The notes under the pieces were generated by a model that was not told the origin of the DNA, searched no databases, and saw only the letters and a program-made list of their open reading frames with translations. This document shows positions 4,186 to 55,990 of a stretch of DNA of 64,000 bases, piece after piece (the first letter of the stretch is position 1; every line of letters starts with the position of its first letter). Source of the DNA: Deltaproteobacteria bacterium (GTDB lineage: Bacteria > Desulfobacterota > Syntrophobacteria > BM002); NCBI GenBank assembly GCA_019309045.1, contig JAFDGZ010000002.1, positions 79,435-143,434 on the forward strand. The letters are read 5' to 3'. The position numbers were made by a program, and so were the translations under genes.

Positions 4186-4387
4186 ACCACCCTTGTTCCG
4201 CCTTGTTCTACCGAGTTAGCTTTATGGGCGATGCCACCCTGTTGCGGTTGTCAGCAAGAAAAAAGGTAACATTCATCTCACCAGGGCGACTAACTGAAAA
4301 TTGGCAGATACGGCTTCCATAGAATGGCGGCCAGGAGACCCAGGCGATCTCTGCTTGCTGAAGAACCTGCCAAATGGGGAGGCTAGA

Positions 4388-5857
4388 ATGGCAAAATTCG
4401 ATTTCGATATAGGCATAATCGGCGGCGGGGCAGCTGGTCTGACTGTAACTGCTGGGGCGGCACAGCTGGGCGCCAGGACACTTCTGCTGGAGCGGGAGGA
4501 GCACCTGGGCGGCGACTGCCTGCACTATGGCTGTGTTCCAAGCAAGACCCTGATCCGGACTGCGCAAATCTATCATGCCATAAGAAGAGCCCCGGAATTT
4601 GGTTTGCCCAAGGTAGAGGTCCCTCGGGTAAACTTCAGGGATGTGGCCGCCAGAATTCAACAGGTGATTGCCGCCGTGCAGCAGCATGACTCTCGCGAGA
4701 GATTCTGCCAGCTCGGGGCAAGAGTTGAAATTGGCAGGGCCAGGTTTACTGACGAACACACCGTGCAGGTAGATGGCAAAAAGTACACGGCGAAGACCTG
4801 GGTGATTGCCACAGGTTCATCTCCAGCCAGGCCGCCAATTGATGGTCTGCAAAGCACGCCATTTATCACTAACCGAGAAATTTTCTCGCTCGAGCAACTG
4901 CCAGAGTCGCTGCTGATCGTGGGTGGCGGGCCCATTGCCATTGAGATGGCCCAGGCTTTCAGCCGTCTGGGCAGCACGGTAACGGTTGTGCAGAGAAGCG
5001 GCCAGATCCTGACCAGAGAAGACAGAGATCTGGCTGATGAGGTGATGCAGATTCTTGGCCAGGAGGGAGTGAGGTTTTATCTGGATTCCACTGTACTTGG
5101 CGTCAGAAATGCTGGCAACAGACGGCAGCTGACCATAAGAGACAATCGCAACGAGGAAGTCGAGCTCTACGGGGACACCATTCTGGTTGCCACCGGCAGG
5201 CAGGCCAATGTTGCTGGCCTAGACCTGAAGGGACTCGGCATAGAATTCACACACCAGGGGATCACGGTGGACAGGCGACTGCGCACGACGCACAAGCATA
5301 TCTATGCGGCAGGCGATGTCACAGGCCGCTACCAGTTCACCCACGCTGCCGGCTACGAGGGCGGCATAGTGGTGAGCAACGCCATTTTCAGATTGCCCCG
5401 GAAGGTAAACTATACTCTTCTTCCCTGGTGCACCTATACGGACCCAGAACTTGCCAGCATGGGTATGAATGAGAAGGCGGCTGCTGCGGCAGGGGTCAAG
5501 TACTCCCTGTGGGTGGAGGAATTCAGGAACAATGACCGCAGCCTGGCAGAGGGAGAGACCAGGGGGAAGATCAAACTCGTTCTCGACGAAAAGGAAAAGC
5601 CAATAGGGGTGCAGATCCTGGGGCCGCAGGCAGGTGAACTGCTCAGCGAGTGGGTGGCCGCTCTGCACGGCAAGGTAAAGCTTGCTACGCTCGCTGCAGC
5701 AATGCATCCGTATCCCACCCTGGCTGAGATCAACAAGAAGGTTGCGGCAGCTTTTTTCAGTACCAAGATATTCTCCGACCGGGTGAAAAAGGGTTTGCAA
5801 TTCTTTTTCAGCCTCAAGGGGAGAGCATGCGGCGACACGGTGGCTTGTGAAAAGTGA
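4388..5857 (+). CDS. class I pyridine nucleotide-disulfide oxidoreductase (mercuric reductase / dihydrolipoamide dehydrogenase-like) with C-terminal Cys-pair extension
   Basis: FAD GGGAAG fingerprint, redox-active GGDCLHYGCVPSK, a second NAD(P) Rossmann motif VGGGPIAIE and a dimerisation domain. Extra C-terminal tail ends ...RACGDTVACEK. RBS GGGGAGG before ATG 4388. Confidence 0.85.
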   Translation: MAKFDFDIGIIGGGAAGLTVTAGAAQLGARTLLLEREEHLGGDCLHYGCVPSKTLIRTAQIYHAIRRAPEFGLPKVEVPRVNFRDVAARIQQVIAAVQQHDSRERFCQLGARVEIGRARFTDEHTVQVDGKKYTAKTWVIATGSSPARPPIDGLQSTPFITNREIFSLEQLPESLLIVGGGPIAIEMAQAFSRLGSTVTVVQRSGQILTREDRDLADEVMQILGQEGVRFYLDSTVLGVRNAGNRRQLTIRDNRNEEVELYGDTILVATGRQANVAGLDLKGLGIEFTHQGITVDRRLRTTHKHIYAAGDVTGRYQFTHAAGYEGGIVVSNAIFRLPRKVNYTLLPWCTYTDPELASMGMNEKAAAAAGVKYSLWVEEFRNNDRSLAEGETRGKIKLVLDEKEKPIGVQILGPQAGELLSEWVAALHGKVKLATLAAAMHPYPTLAEINKKVAAAFFSTKIFSDRVKKGLQFFFSLKGRACGDTVACEK

Positions 5858-5889
5858 TCTGAAGACTGGCAGCAAGAGAGGTGAGAATC

Positions 5890-6222
5890 ATGCAGACTTA
5901 CTATCATCCAGGAGACCTGTCCAAGTTTGAAGAAGTTGGCGAGGAAGCGCCGGAGCTGGCAAAGAAGTTTTTTGACTACTATGCAGCGGTATTTGCTGAG
6001 GGCGAGCTCAGTGAAAGGGAGAAGGCTCTCATTGCCCTGGCGGTTGCCCACACTATTCAATGTCCATATTGTATCGACGCATACACTCAGGCCTGTCTAG
6101 AGAAGGGCTCCAATTTGAGCGAGATGACGGAAGCGGTGCACGTGGCAGTGGCGATCCGCGGTGGAGCCTCCCTGGTCCATGGGGTGCAGATGCGCAATAT
6201 CGCCGGAAAAATCACCATGTAG
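5890..6222 (+). CDS. AhpD-like / carboxymuconolactone decarboxylase family protein (radical-SAM-partnered, arsenosugar-biosynthesis-associated peroxidase-like)
   Basis: CxxC motif in HTIQCPYCIDAYT, typical of the AhpD core. Size about 110 aa, immediately upstream of the radical SAM gene. Confidence 0.8.
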   Translation: MQTYYHPGDLSKFEEVGEEAPELAKKFFDYYAAVFAEGELSEREKALIALAVAHTIQCPYCIDAYTQACLEKGSNLSEMTEAVHVAVAIRGGASLVHGVQMRNIAGKITM

Positions 6223-6244
6223 TGTGCAAGAGGGGATTGCTGTT

Positions 6245-7237
6245 ATGGCTGGCGAAGGCATGCTGCGGACAATGACCGATGTGTGGGGAAGAGGGCGATC
6301 ATACCCGGCGCCTTTCCTGCAGACTCTGGCCCGTCATGGGCTGCAACTGCTGCGGGCAGAAACGAGCATTCTGCAGGTGAATGTGGGACTGCTCTGCAAC
6401 CAGGCGTGTCGCCACTGTCATCTGGAAGCGGGACCTGATCGCACTGAGGTGATGGACCGGGCAACGGCAAACGAGATAGTGGCCTATGCCGGGCGTGCTG
6501 GATTCCGGGTCGTTGACATTACAGGAGGAGCAGTGGAGCTCAACCCGCACATAGTGCCCTTTATAGGAGAACTTGCCAGAGTCGTCCCCAGGATCATGCT
6601 GCGCTCCAATCTCACTGCACTTGCCGATGGCAGCAGAGAGCATCTCATGCAGGTTTGCCAGGAGCACCGGGTGGCGATTGTCGCCTCGTTTCCTGCAGTT
6701 CACCAGGCCCAGACAGAAGCACAACGCGGCAAAGGTGTGTTCAAGAAGTCCATCGAAGTCCTGCAAAGATTGAACGCCATGGGATACGGACAACCTGATT
6801 CAGGTCTGGAGCTCGATCTGGTCTCCAATCCGGTCGGTGCTTTTCTGCCAGGATCTCAGAAAGAAGTGGAAGCAAGGTTTCGCCAGCTCCTGGCTCGCAA
6901 ATGGGGAATCGTTTTCAACAAGCTGTTTTCCTTTGCCAATGTTCCCCTGGGACGCTACCGCCAGTGGCTTGAGCGATCCGGGAACCTGGAGAGCTATCTG
7001 GCAAAGCTGGTAAACAGCTTCAATCCTTGTGCTGTAGATGGACTGATGTGCCGGACCCTGGTCTCCGTGTCCTGGCAGGGATATCTTTACGATTGTGATT
7101 TCAATCTTGCCAGGGGTATATACCTTGGGGGCAAGAGAGTCCACGTGTCAGAGCTGCAGCAGCCACCTCCGGCTGGCAGTCCTATTGCTGTCTCTGATCA
7201 TTGCTATACCTGCACGGCTGGTTCAGGATTTACCTGA
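6245..7237 (+). CDS. arsS: radical SAM / Cys-rich domain protein, ArsS-like; possible selenoprotein with read-through to 7258
   Basis: CNQACRHC (Cx3Cx2C) radical SAM cluster motif and C-terminal Cys-rich region (CAVDGLMC, CDFN, DHCYTC). RBS AAGAGGGG 8 nt before ATG 6245. Stops at TGA 7235, followed by in-frame GGAIET and then TAG. Confidence 0.8.
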   Translation: MAGEGMLRTMTDVWGRGRSYPAPFLQTLARHGLQLLRAETSILQVNVGLLCNQACRHCHLEAGPDRTEVMDRATANEIVAYAGRAGFRVVDITGGAVELNPHIVPFIGELARVVPRIMLRSNLTALADGSREHLMQVCQEHRVAIVASFPAVHQAQTEAQRGKGVFKKSIEVLQRLNAMGYGQPDSGLELDLVSNPVGAFLPGSQKEVEARFRQLLARKWGIVFNKLFSFANVPLGRYRQWLERSGNLESYLAKLVNSFNPCAVDGLMCRTLVSVSWQGYLYDCDFNLARGIYLGGKRVHVSELQQPPPAGSPIAVSDHCYTCTAGSGFT

Positions 7238-7247
7238 GGCGGTGCCA

Positions 7248-7270
7248 TTGAAACCTAGGTGGGGTTTTCA
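7248..7270 (+). promoter_or_regulatory. candidate bacterial SECIS-like stem-loop 11 nt downstream of UGA 7235
   Basis: Stem TTGAAACC / GGTTTTCA with an apical loop TAGGTGG containing GGU. Spacing from the UGA matches bacterial SECIS geometry. Confidence 0.3.
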
Positions 7271-7999
7271 CAAGGAGCAGCTTTGATACAGGAAGCCATA
7301 GCAAAACCTCAGTCAAGCCGCAGGCGGGCAATCCTGAAGGTGTCCTTTCTGGCTCTCTTCATAGTTACTGCTCTCATTATCGTGCGGTTCACGTCCATAA
7401 GGGATTATCTCACGGCTGACTCTCTGCAGTATTTCCTTGACAGGACGGGTTTCTGGGCCCCGGTCGCCTTCATTATTGTCTATGCGGTGGGCGTCTGCCT
7501 CTTTGTTCCTGGTACAGTGCTCACTGGACTGGGAGCGGCAATTTTTGGGCCATACTGGGGCTTCCTTTATGTGTGGCTCGGTGCAATGGCCGGGGCTACA
7601 ATGGCCTTTTTCATAAGCTGGAGCCTCGGCAGGGAGTTTGCCTCTTCCCTGGCCGGCAACAGGCTGAGGAAATACGATGAGGCCATTGAACGCAACGGCT
7701 TTGCCACGGTGCTCTACCTGCGGCTGGTCTATTTCCCCTTTACCCCGATGAATTTTGGCATGGGGCTGACAAGGGTGCGATTCTGGGACTACTTCTTCGG
7801 TACTGGCCTGGGAATCGTGGTGGGCACCTTTATTTTCACCTTTTTCATTGGCAACTTGAGGGAGATCTGGGCCCGGGGTGACTGGAGCGCGCTGTTTTCG
7901 GTAAAGATCTTCTTTTCAGTGGCGCTGTTCATTTTTTCCTTTTTCATCCCAAAGATCATCAAAAGAATAAAAAAAGAAGACAAGCAGATTACCTCTTGA
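7259..7999 (+). CDS. TVP38/TMEM64 (DedA superfamily) membrane protein
   Basis: Motifs FVPGTVLTGLGAAIFGPYWGF and YLRLVYFPFTPMNFGMGLT; multiple TM helices. Non-ATG start: GTG 7259, or TTG 7281 preceded by AGGAG. Confidence 0.8.
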   Translation: MGFSQGAALIQEAIAKPQSSRRRAILKVSFLALFIVTALIIVRFTSIRDYLTADSLQYFLDRTGFWAPVAFIIVYAVGVCLFVPGTVLTGLGAAIFGPYWGFLYVWLGAMAGATMAFFISWSLGREFASSLAGNRLRKYDEAIERNGFATVLYLRLVYFPFTPMNFGMGLTRVRFWDYFFGTGLGIVVGTFIFTFFIGNLREIWARGDWSALFSVKIFFSVALFIFSFFIPKIIKRIKKEDKQITS

Positions 8000-33773: not shown

Positions 33774-35939
33774 CTAGTGCAGACCAAAAAGCCGCCCTCC
33801 CTGGTAGATGGCCAAGGCCACCAGCCAGGCGAGCAGTACAGAATAGCCTATGCTGAAAGCGGTCCATTTCCAGGAATTGGTTTCTCTGCGTATTACTGCT
33901 ACGGTTGCCAGACATGGCACGTAAATGAGCACAAATGCCATAAGGGCATACGCCTTTAAAGGAGTCATGCCAGATGCACGCAGAGAACGCTGCAGGGCTT
34001 CACTTTTCTGGTCGGCGTCAGCTCCTACTGCATAGAGCACTCCCAGGGTGCTGACAACTATTTCTTTGGCCACAAAGCCGGTAAGAACTGCCACGCTCGT
34101 GCGCCAGTCGAAGCCGAGAGGAGCGAATATCGGCTCCACAGCATGCCCCAGTCTGCCAAGGTAGCTATTTGCCAACCTGGCTCTCTCACGCTCCACTTCT
34201 GAGAGGACTTGCGGGGCACTGTCCATGCCACCAGGAAGCTGCTGGGTGACTGCCGCTGCTGAGGATTTTCTGGCTGCAAAGTCGTGGGAAGCTGCGTTAG
34301 AGGTGGCCTCGCCTCTCGGGAAAGCAGCAAGGAACCAGATGAGTACGGAGCCAACCAGTATTACCCCACCCATCTTGCGCAGAAAGATGACGCCTCGGTC
34401 CCACATGTGAATGAGCAGGCTTTTCAAGGTGGGCACCCGGTAGGGTGGCAGCTCCATGACAAAAGGAGCCACCTCTCCGCGAAAGAGAGTTACCCTGAAC
34501 AGTTTGCCCATTATAATTGCCAGCACGATGCCAAGTAGATAGATGCTGAAGATGACATTGCCTGCATGCAGGCCAAAGAAGGTTCCTGCGAGCAGGACAT
34601 AAACCGGCAGGCGGGCAGAACAGCTCATAAGGGGGTTGATAAGGATCGTCAGGATTCGATCTCTCTCACTTTCCAGGGTTCTGGTGGCCATGATTGCCGG
34701 AGCATTGCAGCCGAAGCCCATGAGCAGCGGGATGAAAGACTTGCCGTGGAGCCCTATGAGATGCATTACTCTGTCCATGATAAAGGCGGCTCTGGCCAGG
34801 TAGCCGGTGTCTTCGAAAAGGGCGATGCAGAAAAAGAGCAGCAGGATGTTGGGCAAAAAGATAATTACACTTCCCACACCAGCAAGGGCTCCATTTACCA
34901 GCAGATCACGAAGCAGGCCGGCTGGCAGCTGGGCGGCAAGAAAGTCGCCGAGCCAACCGATGGCCGCCTCAATCCACTCCATAGGATAGCTGCCCAGAGT
35001 AAAGGTCAACTGGAACATGGCCCAGATGAGAAGGATAAATATGGGGAAGCCAAGGACTCTATTGGTGAGCAAGAGATCCACCTGCCTGGAGAGATCGAAC
35101 CTGCTAACGGCCGAGACCTTCAGGACCTCCTTGAGGGCACCGCCTATGAAGCCGTAGCGCTGGTCGGTCAGCACCATTTCCGGGTCGTCATGGTAGAAAT
35201 CCAGCAACCTCTTGCGGCTTGCTTCAGCCTGGGCGAGAATCTGACTGCCTATGCCTCCAAGAGTTTTTATCTCCTCCCGGACGGCGCTGTCGTTTTCCAG
35301 CAGCTTCACCGCCAACCAACGAGTAGAGAAGCGTGATCCTATGGAAGGATCCTGCCAGATTACATCCTGGATGTTCTTTATTTCTTTTTCCAGTTCCTGA
35401 CCATAAGAGATGTGAATGTGGCGGCTTACAGTGTCCAGATCTTCGGCCACCTCCACCATCTTGTCGAGAAGCTCTGTTGTGCCCTGGTTTCTTTTGCCCA
35501 CGGTGAAGACAACAGGCACACCGAGCAGGGTGCCCAGTCTGTCAGAGTCGATGTGAAAGCCGCGGGCCTTGGCCACGTCGGCCATATTAAGAACCAGTAT
35601 CAGTTTTACGCCGAGCTCGATCAGTTGAGTGGCGAGATAGAGATTGCGCTCTAGATTGGAGGCATCCACCACATCAACTACCACATCAGGCTTGGCATCT
35701 ATCAGGTAATTGCGGGCGACAATTTCCTCCACCGAGTAGGCAGTGAGGCTGTAGGTACCTGGCAGGTCCACAATGCGCAGCTGTCTGCCTTTATGGCGTA
35801 TGGTGCCTTCCTTTTTTTCAACCGTCACCCCGGGCCAGTTGCCCACGTGCTGGCGAGTGCCAGTCAGATTGTTGAAGATGGTAGTCTTGCCCGAGTTTGG
35901 ATTTCCAGTAAGGGCAACGGTAATAAGACGATGTTTCAC
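33774..35939 (-). CDS. feoB: ferrous iron transporter FeoB (G-domain + membrane domain)
   Basis: GNPNSGKTT G1 motif, DLPGTYSL G3 motif, and a polytopic C-terminal region. Confidence 0.9.
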   Translation of the reverse strand: MKHRLITVALTGNPNSGKTTIFNNLTGTRQHVGNWPGVTVEKKEGTIRHKGRQLRIVDLPGTYSLTAYSVEEIVARNYLIDAKPDVVVDVVDASNLERNLYLATQLIELGVKLILVLNMADVAKARGFHIDSDRLGTLLGVPVVFTVGKRNQGTTELLDKMVEVAEDLDTVSRHIHISYGQELEKEIKNIQDVIWQDPSIGSRFSTRWLAVKLLENDSAVREEIKTLGGIGSQILAQAEASRKRLLDFYHDDPEMVLTDQRYGFIGGALKEVLKVSAVSRFDLSRQVDLLLTNRVLGFPIFILLIWAMFQLTFTLGSYPMEWIEAAIGWLGDFLAAQLPAGLLRDLLVNGALAGVGSVIIFLPNILLLFFCIALFEDTGYLARAAFIMDRVMHLIGLHGKSFIPLLMGFGCNAPAIMATRTLESERDRILTILINPLMSCSARLPVYVLLAGTFFGLHAGNVIFSIYLLGIVLAIIMGKLFRVTLFRGEVAPFVMELPPYRVPTLKSLLIHMWDRGVIFLRKMGGVILVGSVLIWFLAAFPRGEATSNAASHDFAARKSSAAAVTQQLPGGMDSAPQVLSEVERERARLANSYLGRLGHAVEPIFAPLGFDWRTSVAVLTGFVAKEIVVSTLGVLYAVGADADQKSEALQRSLRASGMTPLKAYALMAFVLIYVPCLATVAVIRRETNSWKWTAFSIGYSVLLAWLVALAIYQGGRLFGLH

Positions 35940-36276: not shown

Positions 36277-36984
36277 TCAAGTCTCCAGTTTGTCTTGCGG
36301 CAAATTGTTGCGGGGAGAGACGAGAATCTTGTGGCCCAGGCCGTGTCCCAAGGCCAGGCGACTGCCTCGGAAGGCAAGAATAATGGGTCCGGGAGCACTC
36401 GATTTGATGACTTCCACTATAGTTCCGGGTGTAAGCCCCATTTCTGCCAACCGCTGTTGCACCTGACGGCCGCCAGCCAGGCGCTCGATGTATACCTTTT
36501 CGCCGGGCAGCACAAAAGACAGAGGCACCACAGGTTGTCTCTGTTTGCGGCATCTGGCGCAAATCCCGTAGAGTTCCATCTTATGGTGCAGCAAGGAAAA
36601 GTTGTATTGAAGGGCAATTTGCCTTTGCAGTGCTTCCATTTCAGGGTTGTGAAATTCAAGTATTCTACCGCACTTGGCGCAGATCAGGTGATCGTGGTGC
36701 CATCCTATATGGCGATGCTCATATTGGAGCTGCTGTCCTTCGAAATGCTTCTTGAAGGCATAGCCGTAGCGACAGAGCAGATCAAGCGTTTCAGTGATGA
36801 ACTGCTCATCGAAATTCTCACCCCTTTGCCGCAATTGTTCTCGCAGGTCACTGGCGGTCACATGGTCAGGAGCACGCAGGAATGCTTCGAGAACCTTCAA
36901 ACGTTTGTCGCTCTCATTGAGGCCGTGCTCCAGGCAGATTGCCGTAAATTCCTCTTTTTCCCGCTGATGAAGCTTCTCAATCAT
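36277..36984 (-). CDS. Fur-family transcriptional regulator fused to a C-terminal FeoA/SH3-like domain
   Basis: N-terminal Fur domain (winged helix; HHDHLICAKCGRILEF and C..C metal site). Residues from about 155 onward form a FeoA-like domain (GEKVYIERLAGGRQVQQRLAEMGLTPGTIVEVI). One continuous frame with no stop. Confidence 0.75.
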   Translation of the reverse strand: MIEKLHQREKEEFTAICLEHGLNESDKRLKVLEAFLRAPDHVTASDLREQLRQRGENFDEQFITETLDLLCRYGYAFKKHFEGQQLQYEHRHIGWHHDHLICAKCGRILEFHNPEMEALQRQIALQYNFSLLHHKMELYGICARCRKQRQPVVPLSFVLPGEKVYIERLAGGRQVQQRLAEMGLTPGTIVEVIKSSAPGPIILAFRGSRLALGHGLGHKILVSPRNNLPQDKLET

Positions 36985-36985
36985 A

Positions 36986-37510
36986 CTACCTCGTAACTCC
37001 TTGCTGATCCCTGGCAGATGTTTCCTTTTCCGCAGGATTGTATGTCTGGCCCCGCCTGGAAACCAGGTTGAGGGAAGAGTGATGCGCTCTGCACTTGGCG
37101 CAGTAGCCATATACTTCGAGTTTGTGAGCGGTTACCAAAAAATTATACTGCCTTCCCAGCTTTTCTTCCAAAACAGCCATTGAGTTGTCAATGAACTCGA
37201 CAATTTTGTCGCATCCCAAACAGCGCAAGTGACAGTGGTGATCGTGTCCATAGATGTGTTCGTAGTGCATGTGACCGTCCTGGAAAAAAGCCTCCTGGAT
37301 GAGGCCGCACTCGAGAAGCAGAGGGATAGTGCGATAAATGGTAGCTTTAGAGATTTTCTCATTTCGGCGTTGCAGCTCATGATAGAGTTCGTCCACGTCG
37401 AAATGGTCATGGGTGGCAAAGATGGTCCTTATGACCTGTTCACGTTCAGGGGTATTCCGAAGTTTCTTCTGTCTGATGAATTCACGGAAGATTTCAATTT
37501 CGTTTTTCAT
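36986..37510 (-). CDS. fur: Fur-family transcriptional regulator
   Basis: Fur DNA-binding helix (TPEREQVIRTIFATHDHFDVDELY) and metal sites HHCHLRCLGC...CAKC. ATG 37510 with a GAGG RBS. Confidence 0.8.
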   Translation of the reverse strand: MKNEIEIFREFIRQKKLRNTPEREQVIRTIFATHDHFDVDELYHELQRRNEKISKATIYRTIPLLLECGLIQEAFFQDGHMHYEHIYGHDHHCHLRCLGCDKIVEFIDNSMAVLEEKLGRQYNFLVTAHKLEVYGYCAKCRAHHSSLNLVSRRGQTYNPAEKETSARDQQGVTR

Positions 37511-38192: not shown

Positions 38193-40484
38193 ATGAAGGC
38201 AGCAACAGTTGGCAGCATTGCTCTGATCGGCCTGGCGGCAACCGTAGGGCAAATCATTGTCTTGCGAGAGCTGCTCACAGTCTTCTCGGGCAGTGAGTTG
38301 TCCCTGGCGCTGGTTCTGGGTTCCTGGTTGTTGTGGACCGCCCTGGGCAGTAGTGCAGCGGCCAGGGTGATTCATCGACTGCGGCGGCAGCAACGGTTTT
38401 TCGGCTGGCTGCAGTTGAGTTGTGGTGTGGTGCTCGTGGGCACTGTGTTGGTAATTCGGGCGCTGCGGCCGCTTCTGCACATTGGTCCCGGGGAGCTGGT
38501 CACACTCGGCCAGATGCTCTTTATAGCTTTTTCCTGCCTGGCTCCCTTTTGTCTGCTTGCAGGTTTTCTTTTCACCCTTGCCTGCCAGTTGCTGTCGATT
38601 CGCCTGCCGCAGTGGTCGCGCTCCCCAGGGTTGGTCTACTTTCTGGAGGGGTTGGGCGCCGGCATCGGCGGCCTCGTCTTCAGTGTGGTACTGGTTCACA
38701 GGTTCAACGTGATCTCAATCGTTGCGGGCGTGGCCATCTGTCTCTGCCTCGGCGGCTATGCTGTGGCACGATCCGAAGACGGGAAAGGGAGGAGCAGTCC
38801 TCTCCTTTTTGTGTTGGTGGCTGGCATGCTGCTGGCTGTACAGTTGTGGGGACGGCAAGTGGATTTGTTGAGCCGGAGCTGGCAGTGGCATGGATTCGAA
38901 TTGTTGGACTCTGAGGACACTGTCTATGGACAAATTTCAGTGGTTTCCTCTGGAGGGCAGATCTCCTTTTTTGAAAATGGCCTGTGGAACTTTACAGTGC
39001 CAGATCTGCTTACTGCCGAGCAGGCGGTGCACTTTGCTCTGCTGGAACATCCAGCGCCAAGAACAGTCCTGCTTCTGGGGGGTGGAATTTCCGGCACCTT
39101 GCGGGAAGTACTCAGGCAGAAATCAGTGGAGCGGCTCTACTATGTGGAGCTGGACCCGCGCCTGGTTGCCCTGGGCAAGCGTTATCTGGACCATGAGGTG
39201 GTTGCCGCCCTGGATGATCCCCGGGTTGAGGTGCATAATGTGGACGCTCGTTCTTTTCTTGCCAATACGCCAGATTCCTATGATGTTATTATGGTGAATC
39301 TTCCAGAACCATTCACTGCCCAGCTCAACCGCTTCTACACAGTGGAATTCTTTAGGCTGGCAGCGAGCAGACTCGCAGATGCTGGAGTGCTGGCTTTCAG
39401 GGTGAGCGCAGCCGAAAATACCCTGGGACCTTTGCAGGCGGCTTACGTGAAACTGCTCTTCAACACAGCCGAAAAGGTATTTCCTGCGGTTGTTCTCTTC
39501 CCAGGCCAGACCGCCCGGTTTTTTTGTGCCAAGATGGGCAAATTTTTGACAAGAGATCCTGAGGTGCTGGTGCAGAGAATCCGCCAGCGACACCTGCAGC
39601 TCAAATATGTGCAGGATTATTACCTCTTGTGGGATCTTTCGCTGGAGCGGCAGGCAAATTTCTTGGAGATGATCGAAGATACGGGTTACTCACGGGTGAA
39701 CACGGATTTGCAACCAAGGGGATACTTCGCAAACTTGCTGATCTGGGGCAGTCAGTTTTCCGAGGCCATTCCCAGAATATACAGGGCGCTGAGTGCAAAG
39801 CGCCTCTGGTTCGTGGCGGTGGGCGGTGCTGTTGCTGTCGTTTGCCTAGGTCTCATTCGCAGGCGCAAGAAGGGGATGCCCTCAGCGCCCAGGACCACAA
39901 TTCTTTTGGGAGTGGCTGTGTTTGGCTATACGGAAATGAGCCTGGAATTTATCATAGTGTTGAGTTATCAGATTTTTTTCGGTTCTCTGTATCAGCAGAT
40001 CGGTTTGCTGGTCACCCTGTACATGATAGGCCTGGCTGCAGGAAGTGCCCTGTTGAGCCACTATCCCACAAGGCCAAGGAGATTGTTTCCTGTGCTCATC
40101 TGCTGCCAGGCAATGCTGGCTCTTCTGTGTCTGGCCCTGGCTGCCGTATTCTATCTGTTTGAGGCTCACTCTACAGCGGTGACGGTTTCGGCGATGGCCA
40201 GACTGGCCTTTTATGTGATGAGTCTGACGGCTGGCATGCTTGGAGGAACCCATTTTCCCTTGGCCAACAGGCTTCTGGCCGCGCAGCGCCCAGGAATGGC
40301 AAAAGTAGCTGGCATGGTATATGGTGTCGATCTCGTCGGCTCATTTGTGGGCTCTCTGCTGATCGCCCTGGTGTTCATCGTGGCCCTGGGAGTTCTGCAG
40401 AGCCTCCTGATGTTGGCCCTGGTAAATGTGGCAGCAGTGATGCTGCTGAGCATGAGGAGAGAGTGGCTGCCAGAGGGACCATAA
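38193..40484 (+). CDS. polytopic membrane protein with central spermidine synthase-like (aminopropyltransferase) domain, 'fused MFS/spermidine synthase' type
   Basis: About 7 TM helices N-terminal, then a PABS-like domain (LLLGGGISGTLREV...YYVELDP...YDVIMVNLPEP), then a further ~6 TM helices C-terminal. Confidence 0.8.
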   Translation: MKAATVGSIALIGLAATVGQIIVLRELLTVFSGSELSLALVLGSWLLWTALGSSAAARVIHRLRRQQRFFGWLQLSCGVVLVGTVLVIRALRPLLHIGPGELVTLGQMLFIAFSCLAPFCLLAGFLFTLACQLLSIRLPQWSRSPGLVYFLEGLGAGIGGLVFSVVLVHRFNVISIVAGVAICLCLGGYAVARSEDGKGRSSPLLFVLVAGMLLAVQLWGRQVDLLSRSWQWHGFELLDSEDTVYGQISVVSSGGQISFFENGLWNFTVPDLLTAEQAVHFALLEHPAPRTVLLLGGGISGTLREVLRQKSVERLYYVELDPRLVALGKRYLDHEVVAALDDPRVEVHNVDARSFLANTPDSYDVIMVNLPEPFTAQLNRFYTVEFFRLAASRLADAGVLAFRVSAAENTLGPLQAAYVKLLFNTAEKVFPAVVLFPGQTARFFCAKMGKFLTRDPEVLVQRIRQRHLQLKYVQDYYLLWDLSLERQANFLEMIEDTGYSRVNTDLQPRGYFANLLIWGSQFSEAIPRIYRALSAKRLWFVAVGGAVAVVCLGLIRRRKKGMPSAPRTTILLGVAVFGYTEMSLEFIIVLSYQIFFGSLYQQIGLLVTLYMIGLAAGSALLSHYPTRPRRLFPVLICCQAMLALLCLALAAVFYLFEAHSTAVTVSAMARLAFYVMSLTAGMLGGTHFPLANRLLAAQRPGMAKVAGMVYGVDLVGSFVGSLLIALVFIVALGVLQSLLMLALVNVAAVMLLSMRREWLPEGP

Positions 40485-44520: not shown

Positions 44521-45441
44521 TCAGGTGAGCAGGAATTCACTGACCAATTTTTTCCAGCCGATTTCCGGGGCATTGCCGAAGACATCGTCGATGGGCTCAC
44601 CACCGGTGGCGGCGATGGGACCATGCTCAGCCATGACAATGTCGTGTAAGCGGCTCACATCGCTTTCCAACCAGTTGTCTGTTTCTTCACCGAAAAAGAG
44701 ATTCTTCAGGTTTCCTTTGAGCCTTTCCGGTTCTATTACCATGAGCCAGCCATCGCTGTAAGGCCGTGTGTTGGTAAGTGTGGGACGGCGGAGAACCTCG
44801 TGATTAACGGCCACAACCGTGCCGCTGACCGGTGATAGCACTTCAGCCTCATTGCTTTCCCTGGCAAGACTCAGACAACTGTCGGTTTGAAAGACCTTTT
44901 GACCTAAGCTGGGCAGGCGGTATTCATCTACTGGCCCCAGCAAGCGCAGAGCAAAGTCATCGAGTCCCAACCGTACCCTGCCGGCGTATTCGACTCTGGC
45001 CCAGGCATGACCCCGGTGGTAGTAATAGTTGTCCGCCACCTTGTAGCCGAGAACCCGGTGCATGGCAGGTTCTGCCAGATGGCTGCTGAGCTCCACTTCA
45101 TCCAGGCTCTGATCGAATTCGCAGGTGTCGCAGCGAAAGTCATGGGAACAGATCTTGTAGGCAACGCGACCAGAGAGCATGTGGCGGCACTCTCGTTGAT
45201 CTGCATGGCGGCGGCGCATTCTATCTCTCCAGCTTTGCTGCTCTTTCTTTACCGCCAATCCTTTGCCTTTGCCGAGCGCCTGAGTCATGGCCTTGTCAAA
45301 GGGACAATGTATACAGTCATAGGCCTGGTCGCAAATCTTGAAATTGATTACTCCAGACTTCATCCAGATGCACTCATTTTCAAGAATATTGAACCCCTGA
45401 ACCTTTTTGGTCCTGGGTTGCTTTTTCTTCTTCACCGTCAT
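44521..45441 (-). CDS. Cys-rich protein with C-terminal glycine-cleavage H-protein-like (lipoyl-domain fold) lacking the lipoyl lysine
   Basis: N-terminus has two copies of KICxxxxDCxxCxFDQ. C-terminal region aligns with GcvH (HRGHAWARVE...GLDDFA...LSPVSG...PYSDGWLMVIEP), but the lipoyl-Lys position is Ser/Asn. Confidence 0.6.
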   Translation of the reverse strand: MTVKKKKQPRTKKVQGFNILENECIWMKSGVINFKICDQAYDCIHCPFDKAMTQALGKGKGLAVKKEQQSWRDRMRRRHADQRECRHMLSGRVAYKICSHDFRCDTCEFDQSLDEVELSSHLAEPAMHRVLGYKVADNYYYHRGHAWARVEYAGRVRLGLDDFALRLLGPVDEYRLPSLGQKVFQTDSCLSLARESNEAEVLSPVSGTVVAVNHEVLRRPTLTNTRPYSDGWLMVIEPERLKGNLKNLFFGEETDNWLESDVSRLHDIVMAEHGPIAATGGEPIDDVFGNAPEIGWKKLVSEFLLT

Positions 45442-52911: not shown

Positions 52912-55479
52912 ATGATGATAACCGAGAGACCCCTCTTTTCCTGGGCGCTGAAATATAATCGTGGGCTTCAGGGGCTACTTGTCTTGCTTATTGTGGTGGC
53001 GGTGTTCTTACGTGTCTTGCCCCTGGAAATGCAGAAGCGCATAGTCAACACTGCCATTGGCCTGGAGGATCTTCACGCCCTTTTCATATACTGCGGCTTT
53101 TACCTGGCGGCAGTGGTACTGGCAGGATTGCTGAAATATGTAATCAATGTACTGCAAGGCTATATTGGTCAAAAAGTGCTTTTCGAAATGCGCACCCAAC
53201 TATACGATCACATTCTCCAGCTGCCACTTCCCTTTTTTCGCAAAACACCGGCTGGCATGGTGATCAGTTCGCTAACTTCAGAGCTTGCCTCGGTGGGTGT
53301 CTTTCTGGGAAGTGCCCTGGCCGTGCCAATAATCAATGGGCTTACCCTTCTTGCCTTTGCCGGCTATATGCTGCACCTCAATCCTCTGCTGGCAGTGGTG
53401 AGCCTGTCAATCTATCCGCTGGAGATTCTAGTGATCCCAGTGCTGCAGAAACGTTTCAATGAACTAAATCGCGACCGCGTGGATACAACCAGACTATTCA
53501 GCAATGTGATCGGTGAAGCTGTCTCCGGCATCCACGAGGTTCACGGCAATGGCAGTTACCCGATTGAGAACGAGAAATTTGGCCGCCAGGCAGCCAGACT
53601 CTTCAATCTACGGCACCGGATGAACATCTACAAGTTTGGCATCAAGTTCACCAACAACTTTTTCCAGAATATGGGCCCTTTCATTCTTTTCCTGCTCGGT
53701 GGTTACCTCGCCATCGAAGGACGCTTTGACCTTGGCGCCCTGGTGGCGTTTCTCTCTGCCTATGAAAAGCTCTATGATCCATGGAAGGAGCTCATGGATT
53801 ACTATCAGGCCTTTCAGGACAGCCGGGTGCGATATCGCCGTGTTATGGAGTACTTCGAGGGACGACCCGAATTTGTTCTGAAGCCGACAGGCCGCAAGCC
53901 CTATGAACTCCAGGGCGCCATAGAGGTGCAAGATCTCAGTTACCTGGTAGACGAAAACACCACACTGCTGGAAGGAGTTTCCCTGTCCGTGCAGCCGGGA
54001 GAACAGCTGGCAGTAGTGGGATTTTCTGGCAGCGGCAAGAGCACCCTGGCCATGATCCTTGGGCAACTCTATTCGTACCATCGCGGGCACGTGCTCATTG
54101 ACGGCACAGAACTGAAGGGGCTGAGCAAACTGGATGTGAATGAGAACGTGGGCTACATCAGCCAGTTTCCCTTTATTTTCGAAGGCACCATCCGCGAGAA
54201 TCTTCTTTATGGCTGCCAGGCACTCGTGCTGGCAGAAGCGGGGAGCGCCAGGGCACTGCCTGATTATAATAGGGTGCTGGAACTCGTCCATCAGGTGGGC
54301 CTTGCTGATGATGTGCTGCGCTTTGGGCTCAACACCGTATTGTCCCATGAGTATGATCGGGACCTGGTGAGCCGTCTCATCAAAGTACGGCTCCTGTTTC
54401 ACCAGCGCTGGGCTGAGGCGCTGGCCCAGCAGGTGGAATTTTTTGATCTGCACCAGTATATGCGGGAGTGCAGCGTCCGCCGCAACATTCTTTTTGGAGA
54501 GCCCTTGCGAGAAGATTTTGAATTCGAGCGATTACCTACCAATCAGGTTTTTCGGAATTTTCTCTCGGAAGTGGAGCTCATTGAGCCACTGCTAAGCCTC
54601 GGTATAAATCTGGCCAAGCAGACAGTGTTACTGCTGCGAGACCTGGGCGATGACGCCTTCTTTTTTGAGGCAAGCCCCATACCCCGAGAACAGCTTCCCA
54701 GGTACAGTCAGCTGGTGGATCGGTTGACGCGTGAAGGAAAACAACCGCTCTCATCAGAAGATGAAAGGCTGCTGCTCTTGCTGGCTCTCCATTTTACCCC
54801 TGCACGCCATAAAATGGTGGCCCTGTCCGAAGAACTGGAGAAGCGCATTCTGGCAGCGCGCCTGCAGTTTATCGCCAACATTGGCAAGCAGGATCTGAGT
54901 AGATGCTACCTGGGCATAGACGGCATGAGCCATCCGGAACTGATGGACCCGGAGAAAAGACAAGCTTCCCCTGATTTTATGTTCTACTGTCCGTTCGAGT
55001 TCCTTTATGGGCAGAGTATTCTGAACAATGTACTCTTCGGTCGGGTAAAGCGTGATCAACCGGATGCCCTAGAAGAGGTGCAGCGGCTGGTTGTGCAACT
55101 GCTGGAAGAGGAGAACCTTCTGGAGAAGATTCTAGATCTCGGCCTCGACTTCCAGGTGGGCAGCAAGGGAGATCGTCTTTCCGGGGGGCAGAAGCAGAAG
55201 ATTGCCCTGGCGCGTGGCCTTTTGAAGGACCCCCACATTCTCATACTCGATGAGGCCACAGCGAGCCTGGACAACACTTCGCAGGCGAGAGTCCAGGAAT
55301 TGCTGAAGACACAACTGCGAGGGAAGACTACGGTGGTTGCTGTGGTCCATCGTCTGGACATGGTGCAAGATTACGACCAGATTGTCCTGTTGAAAACAGG
55401 CAAAATAGCAGAAATAGGCACATATAAGGATCTGATGGCCCGCAAAGGAGCATTTTATGAACTCGTTCAAGGAAACTGA
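52912..55479 (+). CDS. ABC exporter (TMD-NBD fusion) with ~330-aa insertion and repeated Q-loop-like motifs inside the NBD
   Basis: 6-TM ABC_membrane domain; Walker A GFSGSGKST; Q-loop region TIRENLLYG, then SVRRNILFG and SILNNVLFG repeats; signature LSGGQKQKIALARGLL; Walker B ILILDEATASLD; H-loop VVAVVHRL. Confidence 0.85.
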   Translation: MMITERPLFSWALKYNRGLQGLLVLLIVVAVFLRVLPLEMQKRIVNTAIGLEDLHALFIYCGFYLAAVVLAGLLKYVINVLQGYIGQKVLFEMRTQLYDHILQLPLPFFRKTPAGMVISSLTSELASVGVFLGSALAVPIINGLTLLAFAGYMLHLNPLLAVVSLSIYPLEILVIPVLQKRFNELNRDRVDTTRLFSNVIGEAVSGIHEVHGNGSYPIENEKFGRQAARLFNLRHRMNIYKFGIKFTNNFFQNMGPFILFLLGGYLAIEGRFDLGALVAFLSAYEKLYDPWKELMDYYQAFQDSRVRYRRVMEYFEGRPEFVLKPTGRKPYELQGAIEVQDLSYLVDENTTLLEGVSLSVQPGEQLAVVGFSGSGKSTLAMILGQLYSYHRGHVLIDGTELKGLSKLDVNENVGYISQFPFIFEGTIRENLLYGCQALVLAEAGSARALPDYNRVLELVHQVGLADDVLRFGLNTVLSHEYDRDLVSRLIKVRLLFHQRWAEALAQQVEFFDLHQYMRECSVRRNILFGEPLREDFEFERLPTNQVFRNFLSEVELIEPLLSLGINLAKQTVLLLRDLGDDAFFFEASPIPREQLPRYSQLVDRLTREGKQPLSSEDERLLLLLALHFTPARHKMVALSEELEKRILAARLQFIANIGKQDLSRCYLGIDGMSHPELMDPEKRQASPDFMFYCPFEFLYGQSILNNVLFGRVKRDQPDALEEVQRLVVQLLEEENLLEKILDLGLDFQVGSKGDRLSGGQKQKIALARGLLKDPHILILDEATASLDNTSQARVQELLKTQLRGKTTVVAVVHRLDMVQDYDQIVLLKTGKIAEIGTYKDLMARKGAFYELVQGN

Positions 55480-55990
55480 GAGTCAAACAAGAGCAGCAGC
55501 GGACGGCGAAAAAAGCGAGCTCGAGAAAGACCTGCAGGTGCTGCGCAATGTCCCTGCCTTTTCAGTGGTTCCTCTTGAAACCCTCAGACTCTATGCCTAC
55601 CTGAGCAGGCGGCTCTGCTATCGCCAGGGAACTTTCTTGTTTCGCCAGGATGAACCTGACTCCAGGGGTTATATTCTGGTTTCTGGCACTGCTCAATTAC
55701 TCAGAGAATACCCTGATCGCACGGTTGAACTGCAGGTGCTGAAAGAGGGAGATTTCTTTGGAGGTCTGGCTTTGCTGGCGGACATCAGGAGACTGTTTTC
55801 AGCCAGGGCTCTTACTACTGTGGAGTGTCTGACCCTGGACCGAGAGAGTTTTCGCAGACTGCTCAAGCAATTTCCGGAGGTGGGGATCAAGGTATTGGAG
55901 GTAATGGTCAACCGCGTGGTAAAGATGCAGGCGAGAGTATTGGAGGAATGCAGCAAGTATTCTGAGTACGGCAACATGAGCGTTGATTAA
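55457..55990 (+). CDS. stand-alone cyclic-nucleotide-binding (cNMP/CAP effector) domain protein, no HTH
   Basis: cNMP beta-barrel motifs FRQDEPDSRGYILVSGTAQL and GDFFGGLALL, with no DNA-binding domain. Overlaps the ABC gene by 23 nt. Confidence 0.8.
   Translation: MNSFKETESQTRAAADGEKSELEKDLQVLRNVPAFSVVPLETLRLYAYLSRRLCYRQGTFLFRQDEPDSRGYILVSGTAQLLREYPDRTVELQVLKEGDFFGGLALLADIRRLFSARALTTVECLTLDRESFRRLLKQFPEVGIKVLEVMVNRVVKMQARVLEECSKYSEYGNMSVD

Follow-up and report, generated by a model that had tools for sequence, protein, structure and literature searches.

Organization of the ArsS locus

The window, by which we mean the whole 64-kb stretch of DNA analyzed here, contains an ArsS-family radical SAM gene set among plus-strand genes for an AhpD-like CxxC protein, a disulfide oxidoreductase and a DedA-type membrane protein. 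The features of this locus are listed below.

4301..5857, plus strand: FAD-dependent pyridine-nucleotide disulfide oxidoreductase (MerA/Lpd-like); best NCBIfam match NF004991, 466 bits against a cutoff of 620
5881..6222, plus strand: AhpD-like CxxC protein, TIGR04169 'perox_w_seleSAM', 190.6 bits against a cutoff of 120
6245..7258, plus strand: ArsS-family radical SAM gene in its full reading (codons 1-330 at 6245..7234)
7235..7237, plus strand: in-frame UGA, very probably read as Sec (residue U331, motif G-F-T-U), from orthologue comparison
7238..7258, plus strand: predicted C-terminal extension GGAIET and putative true stop TAG (7256-7258), from coding constraint and the DUF3641 profile
7235..7275, plus strand: full match to covariance model R1, 29.7 bits, E = 8.9e-07; no other match at E <= 1 across the 64 kb
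7250..7268, plus strand: SECIS-type hairpin (5' arm GAAACCU 7250-7256, loop AGGUG 7257-7261, 3' arm GGGUUUU 7262-7268), from folding and orthologue register
7283..7999, plus strand: DedA/VTT-domain membrane protein, PF09335, 80.6 bits

The ArsS gene probably starts at ATG 6245, with a ribosome-binding site (GAGGGG) at 6230-6235. Gene callers dispute this start (JGI, ATG 6245, 330 aa; NCBI, ATG 6272, 321 aa), and the GAGGGG motif favours 6245 over 6272; the N-terminus varies among homologues and is not conserved. Both calls end at TGA 7235-7237, and the GenBank entries MBW1979651.1 and MBW2069816.1 (321 aa) are truncated at this codon. The plus-strand open reading frame ends ...DHCYTCTAGSGFT at the TGA, a stretch also read as ...SDHCYTCTAGSGFT. 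The original prediction had described an in-frame continuation past the TGA, and both the sequence and the list of open reading frames confirm it: the frame reads GGC GGT GCC ATT GAA ACC (GGAIET) and then TAG 7256-7258. A recoded product would have 337 residues and the C-terminus ...CYTCTAGSGFT-U-GGAIET.

When U is read as C, the 337-residue protein scores 382.3 bits (cutoff 300) against TIGR04167 ('arsenosugar biosynthesis radical SAM (seleno)protein ArsS', rSAM_SeCys); residues 36-335 cover the profile from position 3 through 303, its last. Pfam PF04055 (radical SAM) and PF12345 (DUF3641, the Cys-rich C-terminal domain) both match as well, and the alignment shows no variation at the three cysteines of the CxxxCxxC radical SAM motif (C51, C55, C58); the ArsS-like assignment first made from the letters holds. 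SPASM/twitch-type and MoaA-type radical SAM enzymes (SkfB, SuiB, anSME, BlsE, MoaA) share only 13-19% identity with ArsS, and DUF3641 is a Pfam family separate from them. A PDB sequence search returned generic radical SAM core matches only.

Selenoprotein members of this radical SAM family had been noted in the original prediction, and their existence is borne out by the NCBIfam names (TIGR04167, '(seleno)protein'; its upstream partner TIGR04169, 'perox_w_seleSAM') and by published catalogues, in which 'Radical SAM domain protein' (TIGR04167, motif GxxU, example AAR34688.1) is a selenoprotein family (PMC13188914, PMC9312934). The window protein resembles the family in its CxxxCxxC motif and DUF3641 domain and in the placement of the candidate Sec in G-F-T-U, seven residues from the C-terminus, where non-Sec members have Cys; G-F-T-U is an exact fit to GxxU. 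Nothing sets it apart at the family level; this one GenBank entry is cut at the UGA. With respect to gene context, no arsM adjoins it (none was seen beside ArsS in the window), and its constant companion is the AhpD-like TIGR04169 protein.

To compare gene order and the codon itself, we used an orthologue set of 80 loci (L001-L080), obtained at the DNA level by scanning one genome per species. These loci come mostly from Thermodesulfobacteriota/Desulfobacterota MAGs, and also from Nitrospinaceae, Gemmatimonadota, Deferrisomatales and Deferrimicrobium; the nearest relatives are Syntrophobacterales-type Desulfobacterota. In 72 of the 80 loci the AhpD-like gene immediately precedes ArsS, and its product (69-86% identity) is more conserved than ArsS itself (about 54-66%), making it the only near-universal neighbour. 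The MerA/Lpd-like oxidoreductase is found near ArsS in 31/80 loci and DedA in 24/80. The oxidoreductase of the window carries a CxxxxC site (GGDCLHYGCVPSK) and a C-terminal CGDTVAC pair, and reaches the cutoff of no NCBIfam model.

The start of DedA bears on the space available downstream of ArsS. Alignments with its homologues begin only at residue 9-10 of the longest open reading frame (GTG 7259), and we therefore place the start at TTG 7283, preceded by a ribosome-binding site (AAGGAG, 7272-7277) that begins 3 nt after the hairpin. The ArsS stop codon thus does not abut the DedA start at 7259, as had been proposed, and a SECIS at 7250-7268 would fill nearly the whole intergenic gap.

Further domain arrangements were noted elsewhere in the window. 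An 855-aa ABC exporter (52912-55479), followed by a small cNMP-binding-domain protein (55457-55990), matches an MsbA-type profile over residues 10-439 and again over residues 698-853; this split points to an insert of about 260 residues between its membrane and ATPase domains. On the minus strand, a single open reading frame (36277-37110) fuses a Fur-family regulator domain to one FeoA domain and lies upstream of feoB (33774-35939, minus strand), and a 306-aa protein (44521-45441, minus strand) has a glycine-cleavage H (lipoyl-carrier) domain at residues 140-258 only, with flanks of about 140 and about 50 residues. In addition, a 763-aa protein with a spermidine-synthase-like domain (38193-40484) matches the fused MFS/spermidine synthase model NF037959, and a 340-aa open reading frame (31-1053) matches a REP-associated tyrosine transposase model over its first ~140 residues only (58 bits against a cutoff of 80).

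The UGA codon and the frame beyond it

Because protein ends alone cannot separate a family that ends at this position from truncation by gene callers, the orthologous loci were fetched as DNA. The 120 closest database proteins all terminate at ...GF[TS]. With a further protein search that started from the Cys-type protein of L077, the homologues came to 219. In 194 of these the called protein stops at GF[TS]; the remaining 25 run on, and all of them read C-G-G-[A/T/V]-[I/L]-x-x.

At the DNA level, GF[TS] is followed by TGA not only in the window but also in 76 of the 79 evaluable loci, the contig of the eightieth ending before this codon. A Cys codon (TGT/TGC) stands there in the other three (L025, L035 and L077), and TAA or TAG in none. 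As a control, the AhpD-like gene next to ArsS ends in a mixture of stops across these loci (TAA 30, TGA 22, TAG 19). Within the window, 45 genes end in TGA (18), TAG (15) or TAA (12), which indicates that the genetic code is standard and that TGA is not otherwise favoured. UGA and Cys at one and the same column are, as far as sequence comparison can tell, a Sec/Cys homologue pair, the standard criterion for selenoprotein genes.

The frame past the TGA stays open in the orthologous loci for 6 codons, occasionally for 7-21, and its consensus over 73 loci is G(67/73)-G(73/73)-[A/S]-I(70/73)-x-x. All four GGN codons are used at positions +1 (31/19/9/8) and +2 (29/19/14/11), position +3 is xCN, and the isoleucine codons at +4 (ATH) are ATC, ATT and ATA in 33, 31 and 6 loci. 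Free third positions in GGN-GGN-xCN-ATH, with their 3-nt periodicity, argue that the tail is translated. The tail also contributes to the domain match: DUF3641 scores 165.1 bits over positions 1-134 of 134 when it is included and 154.6 bits over 1-129 of 134 when it is not, so that the tail adds 10.5 bits and fills the profile to its end.

The Cys/Sec position that had been suspected at AGSGFT-U-GG is where homologues have either UGA or Cys, with the GGAI tail kept in both types; the C-terminal alignment places Cys/Sec opposite the UGA next to a conserved tail. The opposing picture, in which homologues would stop at this point and show no conservation past it, does not hold for the DNA.

The hairpin downstream of the UGA

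The original prediction had placed a stem-loop with bacterial SECIS geometry after the UGA. Its location was right in that a stem-loop starts at the 11th nucleotide after the codon; its pairing was not, as the 8-bp stem TTGAAACC/GGTTTTCA with the loop TAGGTGG contains a U-C mismatch and reaches only -1.8 to -3.6 kcal/mol. The register GAAACCU/AGGUG/GGGUUUU is better in energy and matches the orthologues. It gives a 7-bp stem and a 5-nt loop with G at its second position, 19 nt from UGA to loop, and the putative true stop UAG (7256-7258) spans the junction of stem and loop.

The geometry proposed for this hairpin agrees with the bSECIS model, which comprises a loop of 3-9 nt, an upper stem of 4-16 bp, a G in the first two loop positions and 16-37 nt from UGA to loop (PMC13188914). 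The likeness extends to a stem-loop just 3' of the UGA and a small apical loop with G followed by G/U, at a spacing within 16-37 nt (PMC13188914). Unlike bSECIS elements in general, only 6 codons follow the UGA here, so that the hairpin is mostly untranslated and the true stop would lie inside it; in addition, the 5' arm lacks a bulged U and the core CCUG-AGUU-CAGG is specific to the family. The SECIS of E. coli fdhF has G23-U24, which is close to the G25-U26 of the family consensus, both counted from the U of the UGA.

The stability of the window hairpin is unremarkable. It is weak and AU/GU-rich; against a bSECIS energy limit of <= -7.5 kcal/mol (PMC13188914), the value varies with the segment folded, from -5.6 kcal/mol for the hairpin alone to -8.4 for 41 nt from the UGA and -13.9 for 51 nt. 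Folding of 7225-7295 (71 nt) gives z = -0.17 relative to shuffled sequences, that is, no more stability than chance, and energy alone can therefore not support the hairpin; only the comparison across loci lends it significance. Rfam returned no match either over the whole window at the gathering threshold or over 7150-7350 at E <= 10, a result with no bearing on bacterial SECIS elements.

A hairpin with the consensus nnnnCCUG-AGUU-CAGGnnnn occurs at the same place in the orthologues. For 54 of the 73 loci, a crude finder places the loop start 19-21 nt downstream of the UGA, and in several others a canonical hairpin can be recognized by eye; with this fixed spacing it is found in nearly all UGA-type loci. 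The three Cys-type loci have no comparable hairpin.

Covariation was assessed on two alignments. A MAFFT alignment of 73 regions was ungapped and misaligned the 3' arms where loops were longer, and was replaced by a subset of 31 sequences and by an alignment based on a covariance model. In the ungapped 31-locus alignment, whose hairpins are equal in loop length and position, standard pairs make up 81% of cells against 73% in 500 shuffles, and 29 cells are changed on both sides against 14.2. The covariation score is 0.278 against 0.153 for the shuffles, none of the 500 reaching it, and pairing falls to 44% or less when the 3' partner is slid by 1 to 3 columns either way. Double-sided changes occur in 4 of the 8 pairs, and the four outer pairs alternate among A-U, G-C, C-G and U-A from locus to locus.

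The covariance model (R1) was built from this 31-locus alignment of orthologous UGA and hairpin regions. It matches every UGA-type locus but does not match any of the three Cys-type loci, and the 29.7 bits of the window lie in the lower third of its matches. In the 80-row alignment made with the model, double-sided changes affect 7 of the 8 pairs, a result equalled by 0 of 500 shuffles; this alignment is fitted to the model and so biased towards structure, a bias from which the ungapped alignment is free.

The stop codon that would end ArsS lies within the hairpin. In 62 of the 77 UGA-type loci, the terminator inside the hairpin is a second UGA, 7 codons after the first and within the conserved CCUGA, so that two UGAs stand 21 nt apart and would be read differently; the window has UAG instead. 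An intrinsic (Rho-independent) terminator, for which a GC-rich hairpin with a U-tract behind it is expected, was considered for the same hairpin and rejected: no terminator-like site was called at 7250-7275, and the orthologous hairpins lack U-tracts.

Decoding of the UGA and the role of the residue

We are confident, from the comparative sequence evidence, that UGA 7235-7237 is a selenocysteine codon and that the annotation leaves off the last 7 residues of the protein; the truncation proposed in the original prediction is supported by the UGA/Cys alternation, the conserved tail and the comparison of hairpins. As the ribosome nears the UGA, the hairpin at 7250-7268 would act as a bacterial SECIS and recruit SelB-GTP-Sec-tRNA(Sec). 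SelB carrying Sec-tRNA(Sec) would presumably bind the apical loop AGGUG, 19 nt after the UGA, and selenium would enter the protein as Sec at residue 331. The ribosome would then melt the hairpin, add GGAIET and end at UAG 7256-7258 within it.

Such decoding calls for machinery encoded elsewhere. No selA, selB, selD or tRNA-Sec gene was found in the 64-kb window, nor a tRNA of any kind, and regular expressions for SelD and SelB motifs returned nothing over the window; a screen of the window for other open reading frames with a single TGA interruption was crude and too noisy to indicate further selenoproteins. We infer that selABCD is present in the source genome. The gene might instead be of the Sec type by descent only, in an organism that has lost or lacks the machinery, with the UGA terminating a truncated and possibly inactive protein. 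The empty window and a hairpin weaker than that of most orthologues would fit such a history, which we nevertheless consider very improbable: the UGA, the intact GGAIET frame and a correct-register hairpin with the loop AGGUG have all been kept, which argues for ongoing selection, and the nearest relatives are Syntrophobacterales/Desulfobacterota, an unusually large selenoproteome being reported for a symbiotic deltaproteobacterium (PMC1976440).

There is even less to recommend the UGA as a genuine stop, with a protein that ends ...GFT and a hairpin that serves as a transcription terminator, an mRNA-stability element or an element of translational coupling to DedA. It is true that gene callers and GenBank end the protein at the UGA, that the hairpin is intergenic and just upstream of the DedA ribosome-binding site, and that its fold energy in the window does not stand out. 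An ordinary stop, however, would vary among TAA, TAG and TGA as that of the neighbouring gene does, whereas TGA is present in 77 of 77 non-Cys cases; the four codons past it vary synonymously and align with the C-G-G-A-I tail of the Cys homologues; and the hairpin is nearly universal while DedA is downstream in a minority of loci.

Equally remote is a decoding of the UGA by other means, be it a reassigned code (UGA as Trp or Gly), near-cognate read-through as Cys or Trp, or an assembly error from TGC/TGT, for although Cys codons are one base from TGA and three loci do carry Cys, TGA stops 18 of 45 well-supported window genes, as in a standard code, the same TGA recurs in 76 independent assemblies with a covarying hairpin downstream, and neither simple read-through nor assembly error would select a hairpin, which disfavours both.

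With the UGA read as Sec, the tail that contains it can be considered in structural terms. An AlphaFold model of a Cys-type homologue is of good overall confidence, with a pLDDT of 81 and a pTM of 0.84, but its CxxxCxxC loop and last 11 residues, including the Cys/Sec position, have pLDDT < 50. Low values in these segments are expected in a model for parts that depend on a cofactor or are flexible. The flexible U-G-G tail probably folds back to the active site or to an auxiliary Fe-S site, where the selenolate would take the place of the Cys thiolate that non-Sec homologues conserve.

ArsS activity has been described as 5'-deoxyadenosyl transfer to DMAs(III), an arsenosugar function (PMC13598754). 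For the anaerobic-type Desulfobacterota members, the 'arsenosugar' label derives solely from the naming of the family. A more speculative proposal, which we regard as doubtful, is that the Desulfobacterota-type Sec ArsS is not an arsenosugar enzyme and might belong, with the AhpD-like, MerA-like and DedA proteins, to a distinct module for organo-metalloids (As or Se); the flexible U-G-G tail could then act as a swinging selenolate, either as carrier of the metalloid substrate or as ligand of an auxiliary cluster, with the CxxC protein and the reductase recycling it.

Recoding in the ArsS family is already known, and the window gene adds nothing new to it at the family level. A smaller, descriptive novelty is the family-specific SECIS CCUG-AGUU-CAGG, inside which the real terminator lies, in most cases another UGA, at a distance of only 7 codons from the Sec codon. 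The comparative data make it very likely that the source organism uses selenocysteine. The result is a correction of annotation and leaves the understanding of Sec recoding and of the ArsS family unchanged. The deposited protein and 194 of the 219 sampled homologues are cut at the Sec codon and have thereby lost a residue that is probably important for catalysis; the family SECIS consensus, together with the covariance model, could correct such truncations automatically.
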